A DNA stretch of 64,000 nt, taken from positions 1-64,000 of the forward strand of contig JAUCBJ010007063.1 of assembly GCA_032718475.1 (NCBI GenBank), read 5' to 3'. A model generated the notes under the pieces. It saw only the letters and a program-made list of their open reading frames with translations, searched no databases and was not told where the DNA came from. Position 1 is the stretch's first letter. Every line of letters starts with the position of its first letter. This DNA comes from Nemertoderma westbladi. Taxonomy: Eukaryota > Animalia > Xenacoelomorpha. Position numbers and translations under genes: made by a program. Shown here piece after piece: positions 17,213 through 55,278 of the stretch.

Positions 17213-19368
17213 TATGATGAGTATAGGAAGGTGTGGCCATACAGGGTGTGTAGAGTGAGAGAATGGTGTCGTATGATGAGTATAGGAAGGTGTGGCCATA
17301 CAGGGTGTGTAGAGTGAGAGAATGGTGTGGTATGATGAGTATAGGAAGCTGTGGCCATACAGGGTGTGTAGAGTGAGAGAATGGTGTGGTATGATGAGTA
17401 TAGGAAGGTGTGGCCATACAGGGTGTGTAGAGTGAGAGAATGGCGTGGTATGATGAGTATAGGAAGGTGTGGCTATACAGGGTGTGTAGAGTGAGAGAAT
17501 GGTGTGGTATGATGAGTATAGGAAGGTGTGGCCATACAGGGTGTGTAGAGTGAGAGAATGGCGTGGTATGATGAGTATAGGAAGGTGTGGCCATACAGGG
17601 TGTGTATAGAGTGAGAGAATGGTGTGGTATGATGAGTATAGGAAGGTGTAGCCATACAGGGTGTGTAGAGTGAGAGAATGGCGTGGTATGATGAGTATAG
17701 GAAGGTGTGGCCATACAGGGTGTGTAGAGTGAGAGATTGGCGTGGTATGATGAGTATAGGAAGGTGTGGCCATACAGGGTGTGTAGAGTGAGAGAATGGC
17801 GTGGTATGATGAGTATAGGAAGGTGTGGCCATACAGGGTGTGTAGAGTGAGAGAATGGTGTGCTATGATGAGTATAGGAAGGTGTGGCCATACAGGGTGT
17901 GTAGAGTGAGAGAATGGTGTGGTATGATGAGTATAGGAAGGTGTGGCCATACAGGGTGTGTAGAGTGAGAGAATGGCGTGGTATGATGAGTATAGGAAGG
18001 TGTGGCCATACAGGGTGTGTAGAGTGAGAGAATGGTGTGGTATGATGAGTATAGGAAGATGTGGCCATACAGGGTGTGTAGAGTGAGAGAATGGTGTGGT
18101 ATGATGAGTATAGGAAGGTGTGGCCATACAGGGTGTGTAGAGTGAGATAATGGCGTGGTATGATGAGTATAGGAAGGTGTGGCCATACAGGGTGTGTAGA
18201 GTGAGAGAATGGCGTGGTATGATGAGTATAGGAAGGTGTGGCCATACAGGGTGTGTAGAGTGAGAGAATGGTGTGGTATGATGAGTATAGGAAGGTGTGG
18301 CCATACAGGGTGTGTAGAGTGAGAGAATGGTGTGGTATGATGAGTATAGGAAGCTGTGGCCATACAGGGTGTGTAGAGTGAGAGAATGGCGTGGTATGAT
18401 GAGTATAGGAAGGTGTGGCCATACAGGGTGTATAGAGTGAGAGAATGGCGTGGTATCATGAGTATAGGAAGGTGTGGCCATACAGGGTGTGTAGAGTGAG
18501 AGAATGGTGTGGTATGATGAGTATAGGAAGCTGTGGCCATACAGGGTGTGTAGAGTGAGAGAATGGCGTGGTATGATGAGTATAGGAAGGTGTGGCTATA
18601 CAGGGTGTGTAGAGTGAGAGAATGGCGTGGTATGATGAGTATAGGAAGGTGTGGCCATACAGGGTGTGTAGAGTGAGAGAATGGCGTGGTATGATGAGTA
18701 TAGGAAGGTGTGGCCATACAGGGTGTGTAGAGTGAGAGAATGGTGTGGTATGATGAGTATAGGAAGGTGTGGCCATACAGGGTGTGTAGAGTGAGAGAAT
18801 GGCGTGGTATGATGAGTATAGGAAGGTGTGGCCATACAGGGTGTGTAGAGTGAGAGAATGGCGTGGTATGATGAGTATAGGAAGGTGTGGCCATACAGGG
18901 TGTATAGAGTGAGAGAATGGTGTGGTATGATGAGTATAGGAAGGTGTGGCCATACAGGGTGTGTAGAGTGAGAGAATGGTGTGGTATGATGAGTATAGGA
19001 AGGTGTGGCCATACAGGGTGTGTAGAGTGAGAGAATGGCGTGGTATGATGAGTATAGGAAGGTGTGGCCATACAGGGTGTGTAGAGTGAGAGAATGGCGT
19101 GGTATGATGAGTATAGGAAGGTGTGGCCATACAGGGTGTGTAGAGTGAGAGAATGGCGTGGTATGATGAGTATAGGAAGGTGTGGCCATACAGGGTGTGT
19201 AGAGTGAGAGAATGGTGTGGTATGATGAGTATAGGAAGGTGTGGCCATACAGGGTGTGTAGAGTGAGAGAATGGTGTGGTATGATGAGTATAGGAAGGTG
19301 TGGCCATACAGGGTGTGTAGAGTGAGAGAATGGTGTGGTATGATGAGTATAGGAAGGTGTGGCCATAC
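17213..19368 (+). repeat. 59-bp satellite, left arm (~36 units)
   Basis: Unit CATACAGGGTGTGTAGAGTGAGAGAATGGYGTGGTATGATGAGTATAGGAAGGTGTGGC, in near-identical tandem copies. Confidence 0.98.
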
Positions 19369-20648
19369 TGTAAAAGCTTCTGTGGGATATAACTGGCCCC
19401 TTTGCTTCGCAATCCAGTTTCCCCCTAGGCGCTGGAATACTCTAAAAGGGTTCTCTAACTGTATATATATTCCCCTCGCCCGCAAGGTACCGTTACAGGT
19501 GTTTTTAACGGACATAAAAGTCATTCTTCTATATACGTGTTTTAGCGGACATGGTAAGGCAAAAAACCCGCAATACGGCAAATACTTTTACACAGCTTAG
19601 CCGTGATGATTCAGATTACGACATCTAACAGCTGGTTGCTTAAATGGAAACAGCCATTGGACGCATGGTTCTTTGTTTGGCTTCAGCCAATCAGAGCGAT
19701 TTTCTCTGTCGATGTGGAGCTTTGAGCCGATCATACTGGGAGTGTTCAGTCTTACTGTTTTTTACTGATACTTTGTTGTTATTGCTGTCTAAGCCAGAAA
19801 CACCGGCTCTAGAGTTAATTGTTTTCATACTTTAAAAGAAACATTAGTAGGCTTAAATTATAGAGCGTATGACTGTTATCAGTTCAACTCAGTGCATAAC
19901 AGTGCATATCACTGTACATATCGGTTCATATCATATCTTAACCTACCGTCTTAACGTTTTGCTGTTGTCATATTTTATATCAGTTGATTGAATATTATCT
20001 GGAGAACATTTATAAAGAACCCAAATTTCCCAATTTTCTTGATACACTACAGGTTAGAGAGGCGGGTTATATATATAGCGATTGCGACTTATATTATTGT
20101 GGTGTGTATTGAATTTAATGCTATTTGATAAGCACTACATTGGTCCGTTGCTATTTTCTTTATATATGATAAAATTCATTGACGGTCGGCAAGTTAGTGA
20201 GCAGTATTGTGTGTTACCGGTAGTGTGCATGATTGTGACGGATAACTAAGCATTTCCTAAAGAATGCGCCTCATACGTGAATCTTAAGCCTTACCGACTT
20301 ACCGTTGTGATTAGTGTAAGTCATATCTCTGTTTACCTAGATAGAGCGCCACGTCCTAAAGGAACTGTTAATATTTCCCGAAAGTAAATAATATTAGTCA
20401 GAAATTAATTATTAACGATCAATCGAATAATACAATACAGTAAGCTTCACTGCAATAATAATTTAAGCCCTCAGAATCCAGTCTCCCGGGATTATCCAGC
20501 GGGTGAATGGACGCGCACTAGGCTGGCTTCTGCTAATGTTGTGTTTATTGGTATTAAATATTTGTCATCTTCTAAAGTATATTTATAAACCAAAAGACAT
20601 ATAAATTTTGGCAGGTTAAACTGCTAAAGGTCTTCAAAAGCGCGTACA
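19369..20648 (+). repeat. BEL/Pao 5' LTR
   Basis: TGTAAAAGCTTC...CGCGTACA. By eye it differs from the 3' LTR by one substitution (CCCCTCGCC vs CCCCTTGCC) and one 3-bp indel (TTTGATAAGCAC vs TTTGAGCAC). Confidence 0.97.
19685..19879 (+). promoter_or_regulatory. Candidate LTR promoter: CCAAT box, TATA-like TTTAAAAG and putative start near 19869
   Basis: AGCCAATCAG at ~19685, and TTTAAAAG at 19831-19838, about 30 nt upstream of the 11-mer complementary to the PBS position. The transcription start is inferred. Confidence 0.4.
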
Positions 20649-20659
20649 ATAACAGTCAT
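20649..20659 (+). promoter_or_regulatory. Non-tRNA primer-binding position, complementary to LTR 19869-19879 (candidate self-priming PBS)
   Basis: ATAACAGTCAT directly follows the LTR CA, with no TGG. Its reverse complement ATGACTGTTAT occurs at 19869-19879 and 34702-34712. Confidence 0.65.
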
Positions 20660-20714
20660 TGACTTTATTGCAGTAAGCAATAAAGTTGAAAGTACCGGTC
20701 AACCGGTAAACCTG

Positions 20715-20840
20715 AACCGGTACTTCTGTAGGTCAGTAGGCCCAACTGCCAGAACCGGTACTGCTGTAGGTCCGTAGGTCCAACTGCCAGAACCGGTACT
20801 TCTGTAGGTCCGTAGGCCCAACTGTCCTAACCGGTACTTC
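20715..20840 (+). repeat. ~38-bp tandem repeat (3+ copies) in the BEL leader
   Basis: AACCGGTACTTCTGTAGGTC(A/C)GTAGG(C/T)CCAACTGCCAG repeated. Confidence 0.85.
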
Positions 20841-21009
20841 CAGTATAAGTACATTAGTATTATTCGATTTTGATTATTGTATACTGGTAGGTCTTAGTAT
20901 TTAATCAGGGACTGCAGCCCTGGTTTTTTATTGAGATTTTACTCATTTCTGTCGGTTTTATTTACATGTAAGTTAATATTGAGCTGAAGACGTGTAAGTC
21001 TGCTCAGAT

Positions 21010-21590
21010 TGTTCAGATAATTGTAGGCTGAGCTGCTGTCTGACTGTTGTTGGGTTTGGAGAGATTACGGCGTGTGTAGAGTTTGTCTGATAAAGTGCCG
21101 TTAGTAAGTTGGGGCAGCCATATGCTGTAAGGTCAATCCCCTCTTAAAGAATAAGTCGTACTACCGTGTTAGAACGCATACTAACTAACTATTTCAGAAT
21201 CTGCATATACTGTAGTTTATTTAGGCTTGATCGTAGTCTGCCAGCGTTTTAGCCTGTGTTTGTTTGTGTGGTCTGTTCAGGTACCGTAATAGTTATTACT
21301 CAGATATTTTGTAGGCTGGATTGTTGTCTAGCTATTATTAGGTCTGAAGAGATTGCTGCTTGTGTAGAGTTTGTCTGATAAAGTGCCAGTTAGTAAGTTG
21401 GGGCAGTCATAACTGTAAGGTCAATCCCCTCTTAAAGAATAAGTCGTACTACCGTGTTAGAACGCATACTAACTAACCGTTTTGGAATCTGCACATACAG
21501 TAGTTTATTTAGGCTTGGTGGTAGTCTGCCAGCGTTTGGTTTGTATTTTGTTTGAGTATTCTGTACGGGTAGCGTAATATTTATTATTCA
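21010..21590 (+). repeat. ~288-bp direct duplication in the BEL leader
   Basis: TGTGTAGAGTTTGTCTGATAAAGTGCC at 21073 and 21361. Shared block CTGTAAGGTCAATCCCCTCTTAAAGAATAAGTCGTACTACCGTGTTAGAACGCATACTAACTAAC. Confidence 0.9.
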
Positions 21591-22873
21591 GAGTTTATGC
21601 GATTATTCGCAACATTCATGTCCCCAAGTTTATTCCTACAGTAATTGTGCTTGTTATACATACCGTTATAGTTAAATTAACCCCGGTACTACACGGGCTG
21701 CTTGGCGTAGGACAAGACTGGTGACTTTGTGCTCTGGTCACTCCAGCAGATGCCGTGGTTCTTTTAACTGTTCAAGTATATTTAACTACTGATTATTTGT
21801 TGTACCAGTACTTGTACCTAATTTAGGGTTTAGTGTACAGTGCTTTCCGAGAGTAATTAGTGTGTAGGCAGTATATTTGTGTTGTAAAGTGGTTGATAGG
21901 CACATTCGTTAGCTCTATTAACTTCCAGGTAGGAACACTCCGTGATACATAACGTAGTACCTATAGAGATACGGCTATAGGTCGTCAGGCGGTGGTATTT
22001 TCTTATCTGGACAGTGCAATATATTTACTACTACTTATTATTTTCAAATACCGTAGTACCCTGTCCGTTGTAATAACCAGAAATTCTAACCCTTTGTTAG
22101 ACTGGTTTGTAGACTTCCTGTAAAATTACCCTAAAAATCTCGTACGTAATATTTTGTTGTGTTTAATAAGAGATTTAATCTCACCCATATCGTAAGTAAT
22201 TTGTAGTATTAAGTAACTTAGGTAAATTAGAATTATCAGTTTTAGTGTCCCATAAATAGCACTTCACTGAGAGCGCACAGCTTCTGTGTAGTGACCCCCA
22301 GAAATAATAACATTTATTTCAAATATTGACAAAACCCATTTTAAACGGGTATATAAATATTATAAATCAACTCAAACGATTTATAAATAGTAGGCCTGCC
22401 ATACAACAACTAGGTCTCAATATCAGTTGGACTACTGCTTAAATAACGGTAATAAAGTAAGTTAAAGTAACCAAGTAACCCTAAAATATTCAGAAATTCA
22501 ATTATTCTAAAATAATTGACATACCGGTGTTTACCATAGGCTTATTATATTTATTTCTATAAATTTGAGCTGAAATCATACCGGTACTCTGTAATTAATT
22601 CTAGTTCATAATTATACTTATATATACTATCAGTGTAAGCTGTATACCGGTATTCACGATAGGCCTATTATATATTTATATATATCTGTGCTAAATTTAT
22701 ATACCGGTACTCTGTGACAAACCTAGTTTACAATACTTATATATACTATAAGTGTATACCAGTATTCTAATATACTGTAATAAATTAACGGTACTAGGCC
22801 AACGGTTATACTGAATTACTAGACTTGCTTTAACTGAAACTATAGCAGTAGACATTCAACTGTATAGCTAAAC

Positions 22874-25800
22874 ATGTCTGACACTCAGCAAAACCTGTCA
22901 GACAGTCTAATCGATACAACCATCTGTGACACAGATAGGAGTGTAGAGCGATTAAGAAAGGAGTTCAGTTCACCTCCTACTGCAAGAAAGGTCATCCCTC
23001 CAGTAGTATCAGACCCTAGGCTAATTCAACACCGTAGGTCTATCATAGGTACTCGAGCCCAAGTCAAACGGAACCAGGAAGCAGCTGTCCCACAGCAGCA
23101 ACAGCCTAGTCAAGAAACTTGTTCCCAGCGATCAGATAGCTCCAGTAGTTCGGATACTGTCGAGCTGACCCCCGAACGCGGAGTGCAGATGGCGGCTACA
23201 GCCTACTCGGACCCCCTTCTCACCCTTCCTGCCGCAGTGCTAACTACTATATTGATTGCGGTGGAGGAACATCAAGCTGATTGGGCGAGAAATAAGCGAG
23301 CGACCCAAGATAATTACGCGGGATACGCCAGGGAGGAATTGATGTCTATTGTCGAGTCACAATGGAACTTTCCCGGACCCGGACTCCCGTTAGATCTGTC
23401 CGAGGCTACTTGGGAAGATATACATAGGATGGGAGTGGCTAAAGATACGATGGATCCAGCTGTTTGGAAGAGGTCGGCAGCAGGATATGTGCAAGGGTTC
23501 TTCGGCTCTTTAGAGCGATTAGAAGAACAACTGTTTCGACAACCCCAAGGACCTCAAGAGCCGGAAGAGCTGCTTTATCAAGTACGCGAAAGAACCCTAC
23601 GTATTAGAATAATCCTATCAGCCTTTGAGGAAACTTCCAAAAGAAGACAGGACACGTCGCTGCAGGTTTCTGTTAAGACTTGGTTCCAGCGAGTAGGTCG
23701 CAAAGTGCAAGAAACGGACCAGTGGAAATCCCAGCTGTCTGAGAGACTAACTTATGAAGAACCAACCGATGCCACCCTTTCTGGAGTGGAAGGCGAAGAG
23801 ACCGCAGAGAGACCACGAACGAGAGACGCCATCGACATTTACCTATCCGACTATCAGCGATTCCTGGGAGACGAAGAGTTGAGGAGACGACTGTCTGGAC
23901 TTTCCCCCAATAGTGAAGGAACCCAGCGTGTGTTAGACTCAATCGATGCTGAGATGTTGGCGGCTAATCAAGCTGAATTTGATGAAAAACTCCGCCTCAC
24001 TAGAGTCCAAGAAGAACTAGTAAAGAAAAAACGGATAGAGGACAAAAAGGCAGTGGCAGCGGCGAAAGCGGCAGCGTCAGTAGAAGAGGCAAAAGCGGCA
24101 GCGGCAGTGGAAGCGGCAAAGGCAGTAGCAGCGGCAAAAGCAGCAGCGGCAGTGGAAAAGGCAGAAGCAAAAGCGGCAGCGGCAGCGAAAGCGGCAGCGG
24201 CAGCGAAAGCGAAAGCGGCAGAGGCAGTAGCAGAAGCAAATGCTGCAGCGACAGTGGAAGCAGCCAAAGCAGCAGCAGCAATAGCATTGGCAGATGCGGA
24301 ACAGAGAGCGTCTGAAGAGACCACCCAACTAGAGTTGGAGAATCTGCAAGAGACGCAAGACAACATAAATAAACAGTTAACTGCTAGTCACATGCAGATG
24401 ATGAGAAAATCTACTCCCAAACGCCAGGGCTATACTTCATCGGAGGAAAGCGAAACCACCGATCCTGAAGGCGGAGGAAATAGATCTCGTCTAAGCAGGC
24501 GTAGAAAAACATCTTACCGTCATAAATTGCCTGATTTGCCTCCAGCTGTTAGAAGACAACTAGCTAACACAGACTTAAGTAGTATAGAACCTACAGACCA
24601 AACTATTCATGTCAAAAGACTACCTACAATAGTTGATGAGCCTGAAATAATTAGGCCTGTCGTTCCCAAAGTCACTTCTGTGCTAGAGACCCCTGTACTT
24701 CCAGAGCTTAACTCTAAATTCCCTTTACACAGTACTACACTGCCTGTACCCAGTGGCACAGTCCATGCGAATATCCCTGTCCTGAGCATTGAGGGAGGAG
24801 TCAAAGATTTGTCTCCCGTCGTCCCGCGTCAGCCCGCTACAATGTTGGCGACTCCCGCTTCGGCGGTTGAGTGGGTAGATGAGGGACGGCGGGGGATGAA
24901 CCTCCTGCTCGGACAGATGCAGGAGACTGTCCACCAGCTTAAGGGAACAGTAAGGGAAGGTAGGGCAGAATTGCAAGAAGTGCAGCAAAGTATCGCGCTG
25001 GAATGCGACAAATTAGTCAATATACAAAAGGGCATACCAATACCCCCTGTAACATTGTGTCAACCTGTTAGGTCTGAAGTATTACATGCGCAAGGTGTGG
25101 AGCCTACACGCATCTATACTGCTAGTGAAGTAGAAACTCCTATAGCCAACCCTATTAAGGGTGATTATAAACCTGTTGTTAATGATATTCCCTATAGACC
25201 TGATAATGATCCGAGAAATTTATATACCGATAATTCGATATTAAATAACACGATGGCCCAAGAAAGCTTTACGCGTCAGATGGCTAGAACAGAAGCCCGC
25301 CAAGCGGTTAAAGTAGGAGAGATCGTCAAATTCAATGGAGACGAAATGAAATGGTTACCTTTCAACGAATATTACAAAGACAGCATACAGAACTCTGTGC
25401 TATCTAACGGAGAGAAACTTAGGTTCCTCATCAAGTGTTTGGAAGGACCTCCTAAGATAATGGCGTTAAAGTTTATTGGACATCCAGATGGATTAAGACA
25501 AGTTTGGGATACATTAAACATCAGGTATGGTAACAAAGATAACATAGCTAAGTATTTGTATGCAAAATTAGTAGCCCCCCGACACTTCCTTAGTAGCGGG
25601 ATTATAGAGTTTTCCGATGAAATTCAGGAAATCTGTAGACAATTGGACTGGTTAGGTAAGTCTCATGAATATCAGAGTTCCATGGTTATTGGAGCCGTAG
25701 TCTCTACTTTACCAAAGGGTGGAGTATGTACACGCTGGGACAAGAAAGTGTTGTACATGAATGAACAACAACGACGAAGTCCTACCATGGCGGATCTCAT

Positions 25801-28800
25801 GTCCTTCTTAGATGGTGAGGTAAAACTACAACTCATCAAGCAGTCCAGAGAGAAAACATCGGAAAATAAGGTAAGTGAGAAACCCGCTTCTAGGAGAAGA
25901 GTAACACCGGTGTGTTACACAGACGACGGCGAAAGCCAAGCTTCTCAAGAAGAAGACAGCGGGAAAGACACCGAACGATCTTACTACGTTGACAAAACCT
26001 CAAAAGATGTAAGTAAATACAAGGCTCGAAACAACGATAGGAGAGAACAGGTTGCTAAGACCCCTCCTCAGTCTCCTAACAGAATGCACCGAAGAAAACC
26101 CGAAGAAAGAACGAGAGTGCATCAAGTTACCCAAGGTAAAGTAAGTAACATAAAACTGAACTGTGCGCTGTGCGACGGGACCCACCGTTTGAGTGCGTGT
26201 GCGGAATTTCTAAAGAAATCCCTTGTAGACAGACGTACAGTTGTGTGGGACAAGCGGTTATGCTGTAATTGCCTCAGACCAGGACACCAACGGCGAACCT
26301 GTTACTCCGACATAAAGTGTGCAAAGTGTGGCGCGAAACATCACATCTTGTTACACAGTGAGTTCGAACGAGACAAACAGAGTCAGGTAAGTGAGCCCGA
26401 ACTACATGTCCAATTCAGTGATGTAAACGACACTGATCAGGAGTCTGAGATGGAAGGATTCTATACTGACGAATTCTCCGACGCCAACGAATCCTGTTAT
26501 CTAATCAATACCGCAGTGTATCGAGCACTTACTTATGAAAAGGACACCACCAATGAGTTCCCCCCAACAACTTTTGCCAAACAACCCTCTTGGAAAGCTC
26601 CAACTTCCAACGTAGGAATCAGAGAATTTCCTGTAGTGCAAGTAAGAATTCATGGTACTCACCACAGTTACATAGTGAACGCACTCCTTGATTCCGGCAG
26701 CACAGGAACATTCATAGATCAAGAATTAGCCGAAGACATCTTTGCTGGACAACCCAAATTCCGGACAAAATTGAATATGTCAGGAATTATGCAGGTTTGG
26801 AAATCTACCCTAACGGCAGATTACTACGTAGGTGTGTTGTCCACTCCCCAGGATAAGTTAGGAGTACAAGGAATAAGGTCGGTAAAAATGGTGGCTATAA
26901 AGAACTTCGCTACTACTCAAGCAGACCTTTATAATTGGGACGAGGATGAGAGCATCCAACATCTTAAGATACCTCGGTTCCAGACAGATTATCCTGGAGT
27001 GCAAATACTCATCGGCCAAAACGCGCACGAGGCGCTCGAAACATTGGAGAAACGGCCTGCTCAACCGCAGCCACTGCAAACCTATGCGGTAAGAACTAGA
27101 GTAGGTTGGTACTTTACTGGCCCTTCCCGCAGGACTCTCGAAGAGAGAATGCCACAAGAACGAGTAGATCATGTGAGCGATTGGAGCGAGGAGAGCAGTG
27201 AGGTGGACGAACTAACTGAGGGAACACCATACTCCTCAGATAACGATGACACTTATCAACTCTTCGATGAGGATAACACCATAGACTTACTTACAGAAAA
27301 CCAAACTTGGAAAGATCAGGTGAACCTATGTCAACTGATTCACCCATCGGAACCCATCGCTTACAATGACGAACTCAACGATGAGATAGAGCGCTGCAAC
27401 GCTAGAACTCGGGACGAACTAGCCGTACGATTCTTTACTCAGGAACTGGTAGAGCCCAATTCGTATGATAAGGCTCTATCGATAGAAGAAGAAAGAGCCA
27501 AGCAAATCCAGGAAACAACTACACGTTTTTTAAAAGACCAAGGTAGGTATGAAATCGGCCTCCCATTTCGAAAACGAGAACCTAGATTTATAAATAACAG
27601 ACCCTTGGCAGAGAAAAGAATCGCTCAATTACATCGACGCCTTACAGCTAATGCTTCAGCGAAAGAAATGTACCAAACTCAGCTGAAGAAATTTATAACA
27701 AAGGGATACGCGGAGCGAGTACCGGAAGGAACACCAGTGACTGAGAGAACGTATTACTTAACACATCATTACGTTCCCAAACCCGGTAAGCCCCATGAAG
27801 TACGAGTCGTATTCGATGGCTCTGCTCTATATATGGGCCAATCCCTTAATTCCGAGTTGTTACCAGGACCCAATTTACTCCAATCTTTGTTGGGAATACT
27901 TTTGAGATTAAGACAATATTCCATCGCGTTCGCTTCCGATATCGAAGGAATGTTCTTACAAGTCAAGGCGCTGGAGAGAGATAGAGACAGCCTGAGATTT
28001 CTGTGGTGGCCTGAAGGAGACCTCAACCAGAAACCGGTAGAGTACTGGATGACCATCCAGGCTTTTGGGATCATATCTAGCCCTTCCAACGCCTGCTCCG
28101 TAGTGCGAACCACTGCGAATGACAACAGAGACTCCTTCTCAAAGGAAGTGATAGACAATATAAAACGTAATATATACATGGACGACAATTTAAGCTCCCT
28201 TCCATCAGTAGAAGAAGCCATAGCTGTCGCGAAAGGAACGGTAGAGTGTTTGAAAAGAGGTGGATTTCGACTAACGAAATTCACTAGCAACTCCCGTGAG
28301 TTTCTGGAAGCCATACCGGTAGAAGACCGCGGAGCGAAAGATCTAGACTTAATAAAGGATGATCTTCCTGAAACCAAGACGCTAGGCTTGAAGTGGGACA
28401 CTGAAAGAGACATCCTGTTTTTTCAGTTAAAACAGCGAGATAATCCAGTTCGGACCAAACGGATTTGTTTAAGTATCCTGAGCACTTATTTCGACCCATT
28501 GGGATTTATTAGCCCAGTTATATTGATTGCTCGGAGTTTAGTACAACAGATGTGGCTTGAAAACCACTCATGGGACGATCCGCTTAAGGGAGAATTGTTG
28601 AAGAAATGGATGAAATGGGAAGATTCTCTACCTGCCATCGAGAACTTTATAATTTCCCGTGCATATTTTGGCCATGTTCTTCCTACGTATTCCTATCAAC
28701 TCCATGTGTTTGGAGACGCCAGCGACATGGGAATAGGTATAGTAGCATATCTGCGAGTCGAAACTCCGGATGGAATCAAGGTCGCCTTGGTTACCTCTAA

Positions 28801-29923
28801 GGCACTGATTAACAACAAGTTAAAGGTTCCTCGAGCGGAGTTAAAAGCGGCTTTATACGCTACAGCCATCGGCCGGAACGTAACGGAACAAATCGATTAC
28901 CCACTGGAGAAAACGGTTTATTGGACCGACGCTTTACTGGTGTTGGAATATCTAACCAATGAAGTCTGTCAGTTCAGCGTTTTTGTTACTAACAGGGTAG
29001 CTATTATTCTTAGTCGCACAAAGATAGATCAATGGAGACATTGCCCTGGTACGATTAATCCAGCCGATATCGCCTCCAGGGGAGCAACTCCACAGGAACT
29101 GATAGATACTCCAGATTGGTTGGGTGGACCCGACTTCCTGAGCAAGGAAGAGGACGAATGGCCTCCTCACCTTACTACGGCGGAAATTAGACAAGCCAAG
29201 GGAGCGGAGACCGTCAAACCAAAAACCCGGGCGAGTAAATCGAAGTTATTTAAACCGACTATCGATCTATCTGTATTACATGTTTCCGGAAACGATGATT
29301 TGGATCCACAATCCCTCGCTATAAATAAGTCTGTTGCGGAAATTCGAGATAGAGATTGGAAATCTGGAATACCAGACGTCTCGCAAGGAATCTCACCCCT
29401 GCTGCAGAGAGCGATGCATCACTACAGTTCCTGGAATCGGCTCTGTAAAGCCGTCACATATTTAAAGAGATGCTTTCATCATCAATACTCCAGGGCGAAG
29501 ACCACTAGTGATAACGCTCCATTGACATCTGCACAAGTTCATGTTATTAAAAACTTACCTAAATATAAGGTATCTGACAGTTTTCTAAAGGAGAAAATTA
29601 GTCACCAGGAGCATGAAGAGACCAATAAACAGATACTGAGACTCCTGCAATGCTATGAGGATTCCGAAAAGTATTTCCTGTTGTTGAGAAATCCGCAGAT
29701 GCGCTTAAGGGATCGATTCTCTAGCACAATGATAGATGGGTTAATACGTGTTGGAGGAAGGCTCACCAATGCACCCTTATCCTTTGACACTAAATTCCCC
29801 ATACTCATTAGAAATCTTGAAGTACAAATCAAGATGATTGTAGATGTTCACAGTAAGCTTTATCATGCTGGAAGAGAACGAGTTCTTAGCGAAATTCGAA
29901 CTCGCTATTATTTTGATAAGTAG
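22874..29923 (+). CDS. gag-pol: BEL/Pao Gag-Pol polyprotein (gag, protease, RT, RNase H, integrase N-terminus)
   Basis: Gag core KFNGDEMKWLPF...KLRFLIKCLEG; three knuckles CALCDGTHRLSAC, CCNCLRPGHQRRTC, CAKCGAKHHILLH; protease LLDSGS; RT SDIEGMFLQV and YMDD; RNase H LHVFGDAS, PRAELKAA, YWTDA; integrase HSKLYH. The frame breaks at ~29911-29914. Confidence 0.95.
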   Translation: MSDTQQNLSDSLIDTTICDTDRSVERLRKEFSSPPTARKVIPPVVSDPRLIQHRRSIIGTRAQVKRNQEAAVPQQQQPSQETCSQRSDSSSSSDTVELTPERGVQMAATAYSDPLLTLPAAVLTTILIAVEEHQADWARNKRATQDNYAGYAREELMSIVESQWNFPGPGLPLDLSEATWEDIHRMGVAKDTMDPAVWKRSAAGYVQGFFGSLERLEEQLFRQPQGPQEPEELLYQVRERTLRIRIILSAFEETSKRRQDTSLQVSVKTWFQRVGRKVQETDQWKSQLSERLTYEEPTDATLSGVEGEETAERPRTRDAIDIYLSDYQRFLGDEELRRRLSGLSPNSEGTQRVLDSIDAEMLAANQAEFDEKLRLTRVQEELVKKKRIEDKKAVAAAKAAASVEEAKAAAAVEAAKAVAAAKAAAAVEKAEAKAAAAAKAAAAAKAKAAEAVAEANAAATVEAAKAAAAIALADAEQRASEETTQLELENLQETQDNINKQLTASHMQMMRKSTPKRQGYTSSEESETTDPEGGGNRSRLSRRRKTSYRHKLPDLPPAVRRQLANTDLSSIEPTDQTIHVKRLPTIVDEPEIIRPVVPKVTSVLETPVLPELNSKFPLHSTTLPVPSGTVHANIPVLSIEGGVKDLSPVVPRQPATMLATPASAVEWVDEGRRGMNLLLGQMQETVHQLKGTVREGRAELQEVQQSIALECDKLVNIQKGIPIPPVTLCQPVRSEVLHAQGVEPTRIYTASEVETPIANPIKGDYKPVVNDIPYRPDNDPRNLYTDNSILNNTMAQESFTRQMARTEARQAVKVGEIVKFNGDEMKWLPFNEYYKDSIQNSVLSNGEKLRFLIKCLEGPPKIMALKFIGHPDGLRQVWDTLNIRYGNKDNIAKYLYAKLVAPRHFLSSGIIEFSDEIQEICRQLDWLGKSHEYQSSMVIGAVVSTLPKGGVCTRWDKKVLYMNEQQRRSPTMADLMSFLDGEVKLQLIKQSREKTSENKVSEKPASRRRVTPVCYTDDGESQASQEEDSGKDTERSYYVDKTSKDVSKYKARNNDRREQVAKTPPQSPNRMHRRKPEERTRVHQVTQGKVSNIKLNCALCDGTHRLSACAEFLKKSLVDRRTVVWDKRLCCNCLRPGHQRRTCYSDIKCAKCGAKHHILLHSEFERDKQSQVSEPELHVQFSDVNDTDQESEMEGFYTDEFSDANESCYLINTAVYRALTYEKDTTNEFPPTTFAKQPSWKAPTSNVGIREFPVVQVRIHGTHHSYIVNALLDSGSTGTFIDQELAEDIFAGQPKFRTKLNMSGIMQVWKSTLTADYYVGVLSTPQDKLGVQGIRSVKMVAIKNFATTQADLYNWDEDESIQHLKIPRFQTDYPGVQILIGQNAHEALETLEKRPAQPQPLQTYAVRTRVGWYFTGPSRRTLEERMPQERVDHVSDWSEESSEVDELTEGTPYSSDNDDTYQLFDEDNTIDLLTENQTWKDQVNLCQLIHPSEPIAYNDELNDEIERCNARTRDELAVRFFTQELVEPNSYDKALSIEEERAKQIQETTTRFLKDQGRYEIGLPFRKREPRFINNRPLAEKRIAQLHRRLTANASAKEMYQTQLKKFITKGYAERVPEGTPVTERTYYLTHHYVPKPGKPHEVRVVFDGSALYMGQSLNSELLPGPNLLQSLLGILLRLRQYSIAFASDIEGMFLQVKALERDRDSLRFLWWPEGDLNQKPVEYWMTIQAFGIISSPSNACSVVRTTANDNRDSFSKEVIDNIKRNIYMDDNLSSLPSVEEAIAVAKGTVECLKRGGFRLTKFTSNSREFLEAIPVEDRGAKDLDLIKDDLPETKTLGLKWDTERDILFFQLKQRDNPVRTKRICLSILSTYFDPLGFISPVILIARSLVQQMWLENHSWDDPLKGELLKKWMKWEDSLPAIENFIISRAYFGHVLPTYSYQLHVFGDASDMGIGIVAYLRVETPDGIKVALVTSKALINNKLKVPRAELKAALYATAIGRNVTEQIDYPLEKTVYWTDALLVLEYLTNEVCQFSVFVTNRVAIILSRTKIDQWRHCPGTINPADIASRGATPQELIDTPDWLGGPDFLSKEEDEWPPHLTTAEIRQAKGAETVKPKTRASKSKLFKPTIDLSVLHVSGNDDLDPQSLAINKSVAEIRDRDWKSGIPDVSQGISPLLQRAMHHYSSWNRLCKAVTYLKRCFHHQYSRAKTTSDNAPLTSAQVHVIKNLPKYKVSDSFLKEKISHQEHEETNKQILRLLQCYEDSEKYFLLLRNPQMRLRDRFSSTMIDGLIRVGGRLTNAPLSFDTKFPILIRNLEVQIKMIVDVHSKLYHAGRERVLSEIRTRYYFDK

Positions 29924-31055
29924 AGCTCTGAACCAAGTTCTTAGGAACTGCATACCCTGTAGGAAAGCATTCAGTAGGCCTTTAACACAGCGAGAGGCAG
30001 AATTACCTAGGGAACGAGTAAGCTTCTATGAACCACCTTTTACTAATACTGGTGTAGATTTATTTGGCCCTATTGAAGTATATTGTGCGAGGACTATAGT
30101 CAAGAGATGGTGTGTCATCTTCGTGTGCATGACTTGCAGAGCCATCCATCTCGATATGGTGAACGATCTATCTACCAACAGTTTCGTCTTAAGTTTACGA
30201 CGACAGATCGCTCGCTTCGGTACGAGTAATACCATGAGATCGGACAAGGGAACGAACTTCATTGGTGCCAACAACGAAATACAGGCTTACGTAAAGGACT
30301 GGAACCAAAGACAGGTGGATGACCAGCTAAGGATAACAGCGTCTAGCTGGACCTTCAACGCCGCCGACGCCCCTTGGTGGGGAGGAAGTTGGGAGAGATT
30401 AATTAGAAGTGTTAAGACCGCATTTCACTTTATAGTGCCATGCCGTGCATATCTCACCGACGAACTTTTGCGGACGTTAATGGAGGAAATAGCTGCCTAT
30501 CTCAACGAGAGACCGCTTATGCCAGTCTCATCGAGTCCCGATTCCCTGGAAGCGCTAACACCTGCGCACTTCCTACTGAAGAAACCGGTAGCCATGCTCC
30601 CACGATCGGAGATTGCCGACGGAGACGAATACTGCCGTCGAACTTGGCAACTTATGCAGTTGCTATCCCGTCGTTTCGCTGACCATTTCGAGAAACATTA
30701 CCTGCCCACACTACAACTTCGAACTAAGTGGTTTGCGCAGCAAGAAAACGTCAGCGCCGGAGATATGGTACTTATTGTAGATCCAGACCTCCCACGTAAA
30801 CGGTGGCAGACAGGTCGTATCATCAAGACCCATATCTCGGAGGATGGTTTAGTGCGTTCAGTAGAACTCATCGTTATGCGGCGTAACTTCAAGAAGCCCG
30901 GCATAATCTTTGAGACGCAACAACTCAACCGCCCAGTTGGTCGTTTATGTTTACTGGAAAGAGACAGAGAACTCTCTGGAAACTATGGAAGACAAGACAC
31001 TCTTCCCACGACCACCTCCCTAATTCCTCAAACATCTAGGGACTCCCAAACGTGA
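29912..31055 (+). CDS. pol: BEL/Pao integrase core and C-terminus (frameshifted continuation of pol)
   Basis: CIPC completes the HHCC motif; GVDLFGP, SDKGTNF and GGSWERLI form the DDE triad; GLVRSVEL and RPVGRLC are typical BEL C-terminal motifs. Confidence 0.93.
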
Positions 31056-31570
31056 TACGTCTGGAGTGGGTGTATGACTATGTTATTTATCTATTTTATT
31101 ACATTTTATATGCGAACTTTATTATGTACTTTATTATAATCGTTTTTATTCAATTTTTATTTAGTAGAATGTTATTTTAGGGATTATTTAGTAGATTAGT
31201 GCAATATATTAGTGTTTATTACGTACGTAATTACTTGCAATATATATTTAGTGCGACGGCGAGAAATAATTTTTCTCTTTCCTTACTGTCCGTAACATAT
31301 TATAAATACGTGACTACAGTAAGATGAAATACCCGTACTTCTTAAAGTACCATAAAGCCACTACTATATTCAAGTATTATTGGTAGGCAGAGTATTAGGA
31401 ATGCAAAGTTCAGATCCTCGTGTCTCGGCTAAACCAAGCTCTGGGTAGACCTTGGAAACGACTTGCCTCTTCACACTGACATTGCTTCGTGCGATATTGC
31501 TCTTCTACCTTATAACAAATAATACATATAGTAGCGTGATGTCCCTCTAACAGTAGCGTAAATCGCAAAT

Positions 31571-31860
31571 AAATCTGTTAAACTTTTTGACCATCTGTAA
31601 TTCTAGTCGATTAAGATATCGTGGCACCCACCGATATACTTGAAAGACAAATTCTAGAATCAGTGGTTAACGTCCCCAGACAAGTTCTGGAATAAATCGG
31701 TGCTCATCCTAAATATTAATTTAATATTTATTAAAATCTGTAAAATCCCGATCCTTTAAAATTTCTATTCAATTAAGATATCGCAGTATTTACCGATATT
31801 CTTAGAAGGACTATTTTATAGAATTAAGGATCCTAAGTCCCCAGATATGCTCTGGAATAA
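31571..31860 (+). ncRNA. Duplicated structured-RNA module (two ~125-nt copies) with covarying stems
   Basis: Copy 1 pairs TTGACCA/TGGTTAA, TTCTAG/CTAGAA, ATATCG/CGATAT and CCAGA/TCTGG. Copy 2 pairs GATCCTT/AAGGATC, TTCTAT/ATAGAA, ATATCG/CGATAT and CCAGA/TCTGG. Function unknown. Confidence 0.55.
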
Positions 31861-32673
31861 AATTTGTGTCAATTTAACATCAAATAATAAAATTCACGGG
31901 AATAAATTTAAATTCATATTCAAATGAATTTCATAAATTGTCATTTTGTGTAATTTATAACATTCCCAAAATTCCAGTAATTAATAGATCATGGGAGCGG
32001 AGATTCATATTGAGTGTACTAGAGTGCGAGAATCTCCAACATATAGTCAATAGCCGATAAAATTTATAAAATCATGCATAAAGAGGATATTGACAATTAA
32101 AGAATTACTATTAAATAACATCCCAGATCTGTATGCATGAGAATTACCCTAATTCTACCGCTAGTTTTCCATAATGTCACCATGGCAACACCCACGCTAG
32201 AATTAGAAGCAAGTTAAAAGAACAATAGAAAGCTTGTCCCATTGCATAGCATAGAGAATATAGCACACTGTTAGTATCCAAGGATACACAGTAATAAAGT
32301 GACATTCTGGAAGGCACTGACTAACGGACAAATGGCCTGTATGTGTACAATTGGTGACAGTTGTGTGGAATTTGTGCGTTTGTAGGTGAATGTTACTGCT
32401 AAGGTGTGTTTACAGTAGCTAGTCGCAATTGTGAAAGTAACCCAACTCTCCTATAGAAAGAACCTAAAGTGGATTCAAGCCTTTGGGACGGACAGTGGAG
32501 TGACTTGTGCCGGTTATCGTTGTCGTACTGTTGCTACATGTTGGCGTAAACACCGCGACAACGGTACATCGGCGCTGAGGATCCCACTGTCCGGGGGCAA
32601 AGAGAGGTGGGCAGCGACGTCTGCTCGCCTAAACATAAACTCATTTCGATATTAACAAACTCAGATAGCAGAT

Positions 32674-33072
32674 ATGACGGAGTTGATAGAAGATGATCTT
32701 GGTATCAAGGAGCGATATACTCTACCTTTGCAAGCATTTGTGGATAGCTTAATACGCGGTGAAGCCGATCCAACCATTACGGAGGACGATGGTCGTTATA
32801 TCGAACCGCCGATGTCCCAAGAGCAACTTGCGCGTGAATTGGACTATCGAAAATCCACCGCGCGCTATACGCATCGTAATAGTACGTATATGGACTTCCT
32901 AACTACCGGCCATCCTATCGATTTACATGATACGGACGATGTAGACACCGAAAGGGAAATGGTTCTATTTAAATATCATACCCAGCGGAGTCGGAACGAT
33001 AAACCGAGAATAGATCATGAAAATTCTATTCGTAACAGACTGGGAAGACGAACCAATATGCCTAGAATCTGA
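32674..33072 (+). CDS. BEL accessory ORF A (132 aa, acidic then basic, unknown function)
   Basis: ATG-initiated, coding-like composition, and overlaps ORF B by 56 nt. No motif recognised. Confidence 0.5.
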   Translation: MTELIEDDLGIKERYTLPLQAFVDSLIRGEADPTITEDDGRYIEPPMSQEQLARELDYRKSTARYTHRNSTYMDFLTTGHPIDLHDTDDVDTEREMVLFKYHTQRSRNDKPRIDHENSIRNRLGRRTNMPRI

Positions 33073-34123
33073 GGAGATTCAGCCTATCACGCCCCGGAAC
33101 AGCGACAACGACTATATCATCGAATGGTATCAAGGTCCACAGTGTCTCACTGCGTACGATTATCGACACGCCAACTATGTTTCTAGGCAACGTTGTCGAT
33201 TATGCGCATCGAGAGACCACGATACGCCCATGGACACCAATGTCCGCTGTTCCTATTTCCAAGAACAACCAACTATGGAAATTTATTGCGCATATTGCAG
33301 ACTCAATAACTTGCATATCTTTGCTGTTTGCCCTCAATTTATGACTCAATGTCACCATTGTCAACTAAAGGGACATGCCAGTTTCGATTGCCCTTTTAAT
33401 CACGACTTGGAAAGCGTAGATGAAATGATCACACTACGTTACATCAGAGCTTGGGAAGCGAACGCTGATTTACATTGTGATTCGCGCCATCGCTATTATC
33501 CCGGACGCGCTTATGAAGGAGTTTATGCGTTCCATCCTTATCTCTTCGCCTCGGTCGAACAGAAATCACGCATATCGAGTTACGAGCTAATAAAGCGCGT
33601 CGGAGAATGTATTTCAACCAAATTCGTACGCAAATTTCTCAGGAGTGTTAATCCTAGCGACCTTCATTCCTATAACTTAATCAATTATATCCGTCAGGAT
33701 CCGGACTATGGAGACTTATTTGTTAACTCACACTCAGAGTTACAGGAAGTATATCGGCGGCCTTACGAATACCGAGCCCGCGAACGCGAGTTAGAAAGAA
33801 CCATTAAACTCCGGAGGTTTCTAACCGCCTATGGTCCACCCACGGCCCTTGTTCAGACCACGCGTAAAGGACCCGTCAGAGCGGCTGTCTTGAAACGAGC
33901 TCTCAAAGCCGTTAGACCCCTCTCACCTGATGTCGATGTCAATCAACCCGGTACTTCGACTGGCGGATACACCGACCATAATCCTACACCCTCTGATGCA
34001 ATCATATTGCACCCTTCACCTCGGAGTTATAGCCCTCCTTGTAAAGTGGCTCGCCCCAAAGAGAAAAGGACTCTGGCTAGCTTTAAAAAATTGCGTAAAC
34101 GCCGTCCGCGCAAGAAAGACTAA
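33017..34123 (+). CDS. BEL accessory ORF B (368 aa): zinc-knuckle protein with basic C-terminus
   Basis: CRLCASRDH, CAYCRLNNLHIFAVC and a canonical CX2CX4HX4C (CHHCQLKGHASFDC, 33350-33391); C-terminal KKLRKRRPRKKD. No signal peptide or TM helix, so it is not env. Confidence 0.8.
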   Translation: MKILFVTDWEDEPICLESEEIQPITPRNSDNDYIIEWYQGPQCLTAYDYRHANYVSRQRCRLCASRDHDTPMDTNVRCSYFQEQPTMEIYCAYCRLNNLHIFAVCPQFMTQCHHCQLKGHASFDCPFNHDLESVDEMITLRYIRAWEANADLHCDSRHRYYPGRAYEGVYAFHPYLFASVEQKSRISSYELIKRVGECISTKFVRKFLRSVNPSDLHSYNLINYIRQDPDYGDLFVNSHSELQEVYRRPYEYRARERELERTIKLRRFLTAYGPPTALVQTTRKGPVRAAVLKRALKAVRPLSPDVDVNQPGTSTGGYTDHNPTPSDAIILHPSPRSYSPPCKVARPKEKRTLASFKKLRKRRPRKKD

Positions 34124-34190
34124 CTGTTTAGAGTATTTACGTATATTAGAAACTGTGATTTTTGTATATTAATAGACTCAAATCCCATTT

Positions 34191-34201
34191 TCTGGGAGCG
34201 G
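34191..34201 (+). promoter_or_regulatory. Putative polypurine tract of the BEL element (weak)
   Basis: TCTGGGAGCGG immediately precedes the TG of the 3' LTR. Confidence 0.5.
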
Positions 34202-35478
34202 TGTAAAAGCTTCTGTGGGATATAACTGGCCCCTTTGCTTCGCAATCCAGTTTCCCCCTAGGCGCTGGAATACTCTAAAAGGGTTCTCTAACTGTATATA
34301 TATTCCCCTTGCCCGCAAGGTACCGTTACAGGTGTTTTTAACGGACATAAAAGTCATTCTTCTATATACGTGTTTTAGCGGACATGGTAAGGCAAAAAAC
34401 CCGCAATACGGCAAATACTTTTACACAGCTTAGCCGTGATGATTCAGATTACGACATCTAACAGCTGGTTGCTTAAATGGAAACAGCCATTGGACGCATG
34501 GTTCTTTGTTTGGCTTCAGCCAATCAGAGCGATTTTCTCTGTCGATGTGGAGCTTTGAGCCGATCATACTGGGAGTGTTCAGTCTTACTGTTTTTTACTG
34601 ATACTTTGTTGTTATTGCTGTCTAAGCCAGAAACACCGGCTCTAGAGTTAATTGTTTTCATACTTTAAAAGAAACATTAGTAGGCTTAAATTATAGAGCG
34701 TATGACTGTTATCAGTTCAACTCAGTGCATAACAGTGCATATCACTGTACATATCGGTTCATATCATATCTTAACCTACCGTCTTAACGTTTTGCTGTTG
34801 TCATATTTTATATCAGTTGATTGAATATTATCTGGAGAACATTTATAAAGAACCCAAATTTCCCAATTTTCTTGATACACTACAGGTTAGAGAGGCGGGT
34901 TATATATATAGCGATTGCGACTTATATTATTGTGGTGTGTATTGAATTTAATGCTATTTGAGCACTACATTGGTCCGTTGCTATTTTCTTTATATATGAT
35001 AAAATTCATTGACGGTCGGCAAGTTAGTGAGCAGTATTGTGTGTTACCGGTAGTGTGCATGATTGTGACGGATAACTAAGCATTTCCTAAAGAATGCGCC
35101 TCATACGTGAATCTTAAGCCTTACCGACTTACCGTTGTGATTAGTGTAAGTCATATCTCTGTTTACCTAGATAGAGCGCCACGTCCTAAAGGAACTGTTA
35201 ATATTTCCCGAAAGTAAATAATATTAGTCAGAAATTAATTATTAACGATCAATCGAATAATACAATACAGTAAGCTTCACTGCAATAATAATTTAAGCCC
35301 TCAGAATCCAGTCTCCCGGGATTATCCAGCGGGTGAATGGACGCGCACTAGGCTGGCTTCTGCTAATGTTGTGTTTATTGGTATTAAATATTTGTCATCT
35401 TCTAAAGTATATTTATAAACCAAAAGACATATAAATTTTGGCAGGTTAAACTGCTAAAGGTCTTCAAAAGCGCGTACA
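34202..35478 (+). repeat. BEL/Pao 3' LTR
   Basis: Near-identical copy of 19369-20648, followed by the TSD CATAC. Confidence 0.97.
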
Positions 35479-55168: not shown

Positions 55169-55278
55169 TATATTTCGGTAGCGACGTTCGCTAGCTGGAA
55201 CCTATGATACGGAACTCAACACTGCAACCGGTAGGCCTACACGGATAGGGGTACCGGTACCGGCGGTTGGATTACACA

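Follow-up and report, generated by a model that had tools for sequence, protein, structure and literature searches.

Which kind of constraint, if any, holds together the pair of hairpin-forming repeats that lies downstream of the pol gene in a large retrotransposon of Nemertoderma westbladi (Xenacoelomorpha)? The repeats are found in a stretch of 64,000 nucleotides (assembly GCA_032718475.1, contig JAUCBJ010007063.1, positions 1 to 64,000 of the forward strand; hereafter the window), inside an intact and young BEL/Pao retrotransposon with long terminal repeats (LTRs), where they occupy part of the AT-rich spacer between gag-pol and two downstream open reading frames (ORFs). From the letters of this spacer an initial annotation had proposed that selection acts on RNA structure. 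In our analysis the two units are a real, duplicated and structurally constrained module of the BEL/Pao retrotransposon, and we tentatively read them, with a probability of about 0.38, as a selected cis-acting RNA structure in which unit A would be the working copy and which is likely to resemble the constitutive transport elements (CTEs) or direct repeats of retroviruses.

The units follow each other head to tail on the + strand: unit A covers positions 31568-31732 and unit B positions 31733-31897, as placed by pairwise alignment and, for unit B, also by a match to a model made from unit A only (the borders are approximate in both). The first unit starts 515 nt past the pol stop, and the last ends about 800 nt before the downstream ORFs. 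Each unit has a length of about 163 nt and is composed of three parts: a bulged hairpin of about 84 nt; a hairpin of 5 bp; and the hexamer AATAAA. For unit A these are the long hairpin at 31587-31670 and the small hairpin CCAGA-CAAGT-TCTGG, which together with its hexamer (31691-31696) occupies 31676-31696. For unit B they are a weaker long hairpin at 31750-31832 that is variable in the family, and the small hairpin CCAGA-TATGC-TCTGG, which together with its hexamer (31856-31861) occupies 31841-31861. Every motif named in the initial annotation is present at the position given for it: the outer stems start at 31587 and 31664 in unit A (TTGACCA and TGGTTAA) and at 31750 and 31826 in unit B (GATCCTT and AAGGATC), and the middle stems at 31601 and 31654 (TTCTAG and CTAGAA) and at 31763 and 31818 (TTCTAT and ATAGAA). 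The claim of two diverged copies, spaced by about 163 nt between pol and the accessory ORFs, is borne out by the alignment of 31601-31696 with 31763-31861 (75% identity over 100 nt, E 1.6e-10). No further copies of the unit were detected in the 64-kb window, and the pair is too diverged to be reported by Tandem Repeats Finder. In the linker past unit A, positions 31710-31730 form a perfect AT-only palindrome, TAAATATTAA-T-TTAATATTTA, which is missing at the matching place past unit B.

The outer arms of the long hairpins carry the first line of evidence. Between the units the arm blocks (31584-31599 against 31746-31762 on the 5' side, and 31661-31672 against 31825-31837 on the 3' side) are about 30% identical, which is the level of unrelated sequence, and their flanks are conserved. 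Even so, the two arms of each unit pair with one another: in an alignment-free duplex test the within-unit duplexes reach -10.1 kcal/mol in unit A and -9.2 kcal/mol in unit B, values attained by 31 of 5000 shuffles in each case, whereas the cross-unit duplexes reach just -2.3 and -2.1 kcal/mol. The outer stem is therefore different in sequence yet paired in both copies, as had been claimed. Equally, the inner ATATCG/CGATAT stem is invariant, its extension included; being identical in both units, it is uninformative either way on selection. With RNAalifold on a MAFFT alignment, a check that the initial annotation had called for, the inner and small hairpins are retained and the outer arms are not, because MAFFT shifts the outer arms and the outer helix is dropped.

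When a covariance model is made from the sequence and the minimum free energy (MFE) structure of unit A and nothing else, it finds unit B over its full length (61.8 bits, E 7e-15); a sequence-only model of unit A scores 41.9 bits on unit B and loses the 5' outer arm. In the alignment fitted by the covariance model 73 of the 76 cells hold standard pairs and 9 of the 38 pairs are changed on both sides, a result that none of 500 shuffles reaches, albeit that an alignment fitted to a structure derived from unit A lets such pair counts lean towards the fold. When the partner column is slid by one to three columns as a control, 33-45% of the cells are paired and the pairs changed on both sides number 0 to 2. 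The differences between the units are also unevenly placed: within the well-aligned inner and middle part they fall on 6 of 46 paired and on 8 of 15 unpaired positions (Fisher p 0.003), and within the small hairpin they affect the loop (3 of 5 positions) and leave the stem and flanks untouched (0 of 20; p 0.004).

Other copies of the family tell a similar story. Out of eight public sequencing runs, none of them on record as RNA, we used contigs at a likeness of 80% from X1, X3, X4 and X5 for positions 30900-32800 and from X1, X4, X5 and X7 for 31575-31870, and counted as variable any site with another letter in at least 15% of the depth. One of the runs, X5, is RNA by guess at most, and its contigs, which cover parts of the spacer, carry no information on expression, transcript ends or strand. 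The contigs are unlinked between sites, so that the figures below are depths per site and do not describe covariation across copies. The family is extremely abundant: on the 1.9 kb of 30900-32800 it is represented by 21,968 contigs of X1 and 4,948 of X3 (both from organism A), and it also occurs in runs labelled as two other organisms, with 96-98% identity. In the 110-nt core of unit A (31587-31696) just two sites are variable, 31622 (T>C) and 31654 (C>A), both of them in the long hairpin; the linker of 53 nt that follows (31697-31749) has seven, and hairpin B has 18 in 83 nt. In hairpin B, variation affects 5 of the 52 positions that are paired in the MFE structure and 13 of the 31 that are not (p 0.0009). 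Three of the five variants at paired sites leave the pairing intact, be it standard or wobble (31770 C>T, 31796 A>G and 31805 G>A); of the other two, 31755 T>G breaks its pair, and 31768 is taken up below.

A diverged sublineage adds to this picture. It is represented by an X5 contig from organism B, which spans 31372-31708 and carries 11 other letters, and by an X4 contig spanning 31373-31708 with 8 other letters and one gap; X4 and X5 have a common variant set and so stand for one lineage and not two. The differences listed for the two contigs (31504, 31505, 31510, 31515, 31516, 31547, 31561, 31563, 31584, 31585 and 31704) all spare the core at 31587-31696, and by our own arithmetic the chance that the 11 differences of the X5 contig would all miss it is (227/337)^11, or about 0.013. 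Two further signals were considered and set aside. A strand asymmetry of wobble pairs gave no call, as the changes that make G.U pairs (31770 and 31796) are balanced by those that make C.A pairs (31622, 31799 and 31757). The lower depth over unit B, as a sign of copies with a single unit, is ambiguous, because B units that are more diverged may be lost at the cut-off of 80%.

One of the proposed compensatory changes does not hold. The middle stem had been described as changing in concert, from TTCTAG/CTAGAA in unit A to TTCTAT/ATAGAA in unit B. At 31768, where the window has T, all other copies from the four runs have G (100% of depth, 4 of 4 runs), and for 31818, its claimed partner, no variant of at least 15% is listed; the pair T31768-A31818 is therefore private to this copy. 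The concerted change thus resolves into a widespread change on the 3' side, of which the same C>A substitution is seen at 31654 of unit A in 15% of the X1 depth, and a 5' change that only this copy has. With G at 31768, unit B would, by the predicted structure, form a short GTC/GAC helix like the one in the MFE structure of unit A.

What is observed, then, is a constrained module: unit A is held in its sequence, and in either unit the closing helix is held in its pairing and not in its sequence. Structured nucleic-acid elements usually leave a signature of this kind. Two facts lead us to read this module as a cis-acting RNA structure on the full-length transcript: its place on the sense strand of a retrotransposon that has to be transcribed from end to end, and the better folding of hairpin A on the + strand (-26.8 kcal/mol, compared with -20.0 on the - strand). 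The proposal of selection on RNA structure has the support of four tests that agree with one another, those of arms that pair within and not between units, of the pair counts, and of the two excesses of unpaired variation (p 0.003 and p 0.0009).

By folding energy unit A stands well (121 nt, + strand: -33.3 kcal/mol, z -4.1, none of 200 shuffles as good), and so does its long hairpin alone (z -5.24, 0 of 200 shuffles). Several results are set against our reading. The shuffle control suggested in the initial annotation, which unit A passes, is marginal for unit B (123 nt, + strand: -22.2 kcal/mol, z -1.56, 16 of 200 shuffles as good), the hairpin B alone doing somewhat better (-15.1 kcal/mol, z -2.28, 4 of 200). 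Compared with 8518 stretches of 121 nt from the window, and after regression on GC content, unit A ranks in the 5th percentile and unit B in the 29th, so that the stability of the fold is not remarkable by itself. The covariation involves two sequences only, in counts that lean towards the fold; the other copies and species, at 96-98% identity to the window, allow a shallow comparison, and it is drawn from contigs of runs of which none is recorded as RNA. The 5' change in the middle stem is private, as said, and at the apex of hairpin A a T-A pair is lost without compensation through 31622 T>C, a variant that makes up 45% of the X1 depth. The conserved half-sites and variable spacer of the small hairpin also fit palindromes of DNA bound by protein, and a single template-switch mutation, as described in PMC8794818, can make or restore both arms of a stem with no selection involved. 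The evidence does not tell a fold in RNA apart from an inverted repeat in DNA, nor selection from template switching, and to that extent the proposal stands only in part. As to a CTE-like function, the motif AAGACA, to which we return below, is found 15 times on the + strand of the retrotransposon (16 kb) and would fall in an 84-nt hairpin by chance in about 8% of cases; neither hairpin has a pair of loops with two-fold symmetry, and unit B of this copy reads AAGGAC at the place of AAGACA.

If the units do work as RNA, the sense-strand transcript would fold at each unit into the predicted bulged hairpin of about 84 nt and the hairpin of 5 bp, and by analogy this fold could recruit a protein of the host or of the retrotransposon itself. 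The recruited protein would then promote the export or the cytoplasmic use of the unspliced genomic RNA, in the way of retroviral CTEs and of the direct repeats of Rous sarcoma virus (RSV). On this view the working copy would be unit A, which hardly varies in the family, and unit B would be a duplicate that is in part redundant and drifts, with its closing helix still maintained. The position of the module, in the 3' part of the retrotransposon and upstream of accessory ORFs, and its repeated architecture are what recall the retroviral export elements.

The CTE is described as a stem-loop of 150-175 nt with two symmetric internal loops, each containing AAGACA and each binding one NXF1/Tap-p15 (PMC7551171, PMC4330393), and AAGACA as the loop motif of CTEs that is bound by NXF1/Tap (PMC4174252, PMC4330393). 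A CTE-like stem-loop of about 100 nt with an AAGACA loop is reported from pol of murine leukemia virus (MLV), and is said to work better in tandem copies (PMC4174252). With the CTE of Mason-Pfizer monkey virus and simian retrovirus 1 (MPMV/SRV-1), and with the MLV stem-loop, our module would share, by analogy, the general design of a cis-acting, bulged stem-loop in repeated units in the 3' part of a retroelement. Unit A also has AAGACA at 31644-31649, in what is predicted to be an internal loop or bulge region of hairpin A and partly inside a predicted 3-bp helix. There are clear differences as well: instead of the single stem of the CTE we find two separate tandem hairpins of 84 nt with one asymmetric loop region each; AAGACA is found in unit A alone (in this copy); similarity in sequence or in Rfam is absent; and the host is a BEL/Pao retrotransposon of an animal and not a retrovirus. 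Binding of NXF1 would be hypothetical. A search of 30900-32800 against Rfam with cmscan at E values up to 10, the Infernal check that had been proposed, gave no match inside the units and two weak hits outside them, to unrelated families of small RNAs and far under the gathering scores. Given the number of AAGACA motifs in the retrotransposon, the AAGGAC of unit B and the lack of a symmetric loop pair within one hairpin, the module falls outside the CTE family; it may at best be CTE-like in its working, of which AAGACA in unit A is a weak hint. The more specific proposal, that a highly amplified BEL/Pao retrotransposon of invertebrate type with orphan accessory ORFs has its own CTE-like export element in which tandem hairpins bearing AAGACA recruit NXF1 of the host, we consider quite improbable; if true, the element would have evolved independently and would be without precedent beyond retroviruses and their close relatives.

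The direct repeats of RSV are reported to bind NXF1 and DDX5 and to mediate the export of unspliced RNA (PMC7551171). They would resemble our units in being two diverged direct copies in the 3' region near an accessory gene, and differ in that the copies of RSV, which promote the accumulation of unspliced RNA in the cytoplasm, flank src, whereas ours lie head to tail upstream of the accessory ORFs; no relation in sequence was found.

Of the other explanations, the one that survives best is that of a neutral, hypervariable tandem repeat, whose inverted repeats are made and kept complementary by template switching, either of reverse transcriptase or in DNA replication. We hold it unlikely. In its favour, the number of units differs among genomic copies: the joints 31650>31813, 31712>31882 and 31713>31885 drop a unit and the back-joints 31746>31599 and 31754>31599 add one, all at low depth. 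The AT-rich spacer has many inverted repeats (25 pairs in 1.7 kb), and unit B folds weakly. Template switching, as described in PMC8794818, yields 'compensatory' changes of several bases in a single event, and the hairpins concerned are like ours in that both arms of a stem are replaced together with complementarity kept. That is a mutational mechanism and not a function; it accounts for complementarity, but gives no reason to expect what we see both between the units and among the copies of the family, namely that loops vary more than stems. Also against a neutral repeat are the 2 variable sites in the 110 nt of unit A, compared with 7 in the 53 nt of the linker, and the core that is spared by all 11 differences of the diverged sublineage.

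Tandem repeats of this kind have a precedent in plants, where the repeats of Retand elements between pol and the 3' LTR, beside extra ORFs, are described as common and unexplained (PMC11963269). Our units, which lie head to tail between pol and the 3' LTR in a number that varies among copies, are like these repeats in their position, in the additional ORFs alongside, in a sequence specific to the family and in variable copy number. The plant elements belong to Ty3/gypsy and have arrays of at least three units and mostly antisense ORFs, whereas here we deal with a BEL/Pao retrotransposon of an animal, two units diverged to 75% identity, sense ORFs, and evidence of constraint on the internal hairpin.

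A second explanation, distinctly unlikely, takes the units as an internal module for 3'-end formation: the hairpins would serve as upstream elements for AAUAAA, and some sense transcripts would be polyadenylated past pol to give a gag-pol mRNA without the accessory ORFs. Five AATAAA hexamers are present within 31568-31906 (at 31568, 31691, 31856, 31886 and 31901), where about 2.0 would be expected for the entire spacer of 1618 nt, and the LTRs have none. Each unit closes with GGAATAAA, followed by GTG/T-rich sequence, and the hexamer of unit A is free of variants of at least 15%. The hexamer of unit B, on the other hand, is destroyed by 31859 A>C in 97% of the X4 depth and 77% of the X5 depth; hexamers arise easily in AT-rich sequence, and the mirror TTTATT is also enriched, with seven in the spacer; and transposition needs a full-length RNA that reads through these very sites. 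The hexamers are moreover arranged in opposed clusters, six TTTATT (AATAAA on the - strand) in 31095-31215 facing the five AATAAA on the + strand, an arrangement that recalls a two-way 3'-end region.

The same units could act as DNA. Their palindromic half-sites (CCAGA-N5-TCTGG, TTCTAGAA and GATATC) would then bind dimeric factors of the host, as a duplicated enhancer that serves an internal promoter of the downstream ORFs. The small hairpin, with its constant half-sites and varying spacer (0 of 20 and 3 of 5 positions changed), speaks for this, as do the distance of about 0.8-1.1 kb from the duplicates to the ORF start (32674) downstream of them and the folding of unit B, which is alike on both strands (-15.1 on + and -15.7 kcal/mol on -). 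Outer arms that have changed wholly and yet remain complementary are not expected of a sequence-specific binding site, and hairpin A is clearly better on the + strand. A DNA-level module receives little credence from us.

We give equally little to a packaging or dimerisation signal that would be bound by Gag or by the CCHC-like protein of the 368-aa downstream ORF. The structural constraint it calls for is the same as for a cis-acting RNA structure in general; the 368-aa ORF encodes one canonical knuckle (C-x2-C-x4-H-x4-C) and two variants; and the 3' arm of hairpin A contains a perfect palindrome of 10 nt, ATTCTAGAAT, at 31651-31660. Retroelement packaging signals, however, usually lie near the 5' end. 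The knuckle ORF, in addition, has no detectable relatives among 763 candidates of near length, its matches to zf-CCHC are below threshold, and its binding to the units is pure conjecture.

That small RNAs are processed from the hairpins, which would then be a pair of precursors of miRNAs or siRNAs, is very improbable: the long hairpin has the size of a pre-miRNA (84 nt) and, in unit A, the z of -5.24 already given, but the predicted structure is interrupted by a bulge of 6 nt, a 2x2 internal loop and several bulges of 1 nt, hairpin B reaches just -15.1 kcal/mol, and no miRNA family of Rfam matches at E up to 10. An uncharacterised self-cleaving ribozyme, also among the candidates of the initial annotation, has a conserved fold to its credit and nothing more. 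Rfam, searched with all its families and at E values up to 10, matches nothing within the units, and we assign the ribozyme next to no probability.

BEL/Pao elements are poorly studied, and the present family is extremely abundant in the sequencing runs of its host. Should the fold be a working RNA signal, a BEL/Pao retrotransposon would regulate its transcripts by a structured 3' element in combination with accessory genes, an arrangement otherwise known from retroviruses, and the module would offer, from a non-model animal, a small and concrete candidate of 110 nt for a role in RNA export or in the control of 3' ends. Should it instead be a drifting tandem repeat, it would add another example to a feature that is widespread among LTR retrotransposons, and would warn that differences which look 'compensatory' in a comparison of two copies may be private or mutational.

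Relatives were sought widely. A core pattern with 19 specified bases had no match in a collection of viral contigs; its two matches in metagenome contigs have unrelated flanks and no blastn similarity to the retrotransposon and are due to chance, and two matches in genome contigs, of bacterial metagenome-assembled genomes by the titles of their records, were taken as chance likewise. A query with the integrase ORF gave 12 pattern matches in the viral contig collection, none of which was confirmed. Outside the sequencing runs of the host itself, therefore, no relatives were obtained from the viral, metagenome or genome contig collections. ARAGORN predicted no tRNA genes in 30900-32800. A single literature search for an arrangement of this kind, a BEL/Pao element that has extra ORFs beside tandem repeats, brought up no paper that contains 'BEL Pao'.

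The retrotransposon that houses the module is complete: it extends over 16,110 bp on the + strand (19369-35478), has LTRs at 19369-20648 and 34202-35478 with an identity of 99.7% (1280 columns, 3 gaps) that start with TG and end with CA, and is flanked on either side by the target-site duplication CATAC. The gag-pol region (22874-31055, + strand) consists of two overlapping ORFs in different frames, 22874-29923 and 29844-31055, and encodes a polyprotein of the Pao type with the domains Peptidase_A17 (E 4e-36), DUF1759 (E 8.7e-12) and DUF5641 (E 1.7e-20), all of which pass the Pfam cut-offs. The non-coding spacer that follows (31056-32673, + strand; 1618 nt, 64% A+T) has no ORF of at least 40 aa on the + strand, and it is joined directly to the end of pol in other copies too, as seen in contigs that cross 31055. 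Beyond it are the two overlapping downstream ORFs (32674-34123, + strand), of 132 aa (32674-33072) and 368 aa (33017-34123). Neither matches a Pfam family at E 0.001, the 368-aa ORF giving just sub-threshold hits to zf-CCHC (E 0.19 and 3.7); for the latter, there was no homologue among 763 candidates of near length, and its top score in a protein atlas, 0.86, is under the level that counts. In both ORF pairs the frame changes inside a short overlap, of 80 nt in pol (29844-29923) and of 56 nt downstream (33017-33072), which could reflect programmed frameshifts, introns or mutations and deserves attention in a retrotransposon with LTRs that are 99.7% identical.

The spacer contains another hairpin that far outfolds the tandem units. 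It is GC-rich, covers 32476-32610 on the + strand and ends 64 nt upstream of the ATG of the 132-aa ORF (32674); its energy is -63.2 kcal/mol (z -5.07, 0 of 200 shuffles), compared with -46.4 on the - strand, and it might be a signal for the translation or packaging of the downstream ORFs. Tandem repeats are also present in the 2.2-kb leader of the retrotransposon, as 3.3 copies of 38 bp (20714-20840) and 2.0 copies of 288 bp (21013-21592).

The surroundings of the retrotransposon are rich in repeats. Its insertion is hosted by a satellite of 59 bp, the array of which continues on both sides (18500-19368 and from 35479 onward), and a separate satellite of 44 bp, with about 320 copies, begins near 43960; the long 'ORFs' over these arrays are artefacts of the repeats and have no meaningful Pfam hits. 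At 55267-59931 on the + strand lies a pol ORF of the Ty3/gypsy type, 1554 aa long, which encodes RVT_1, RNase H and integrase domains. Adjoining the repeats on the other side, positions 5362-16524 of the - strand hold an uninterrupted single-exon ORF. Its product of 3719 aa has a FAT4-like N-terminal domain and 21 cadherin repeats, and the ORF represents a giant intronless gene of the protocadherin type.

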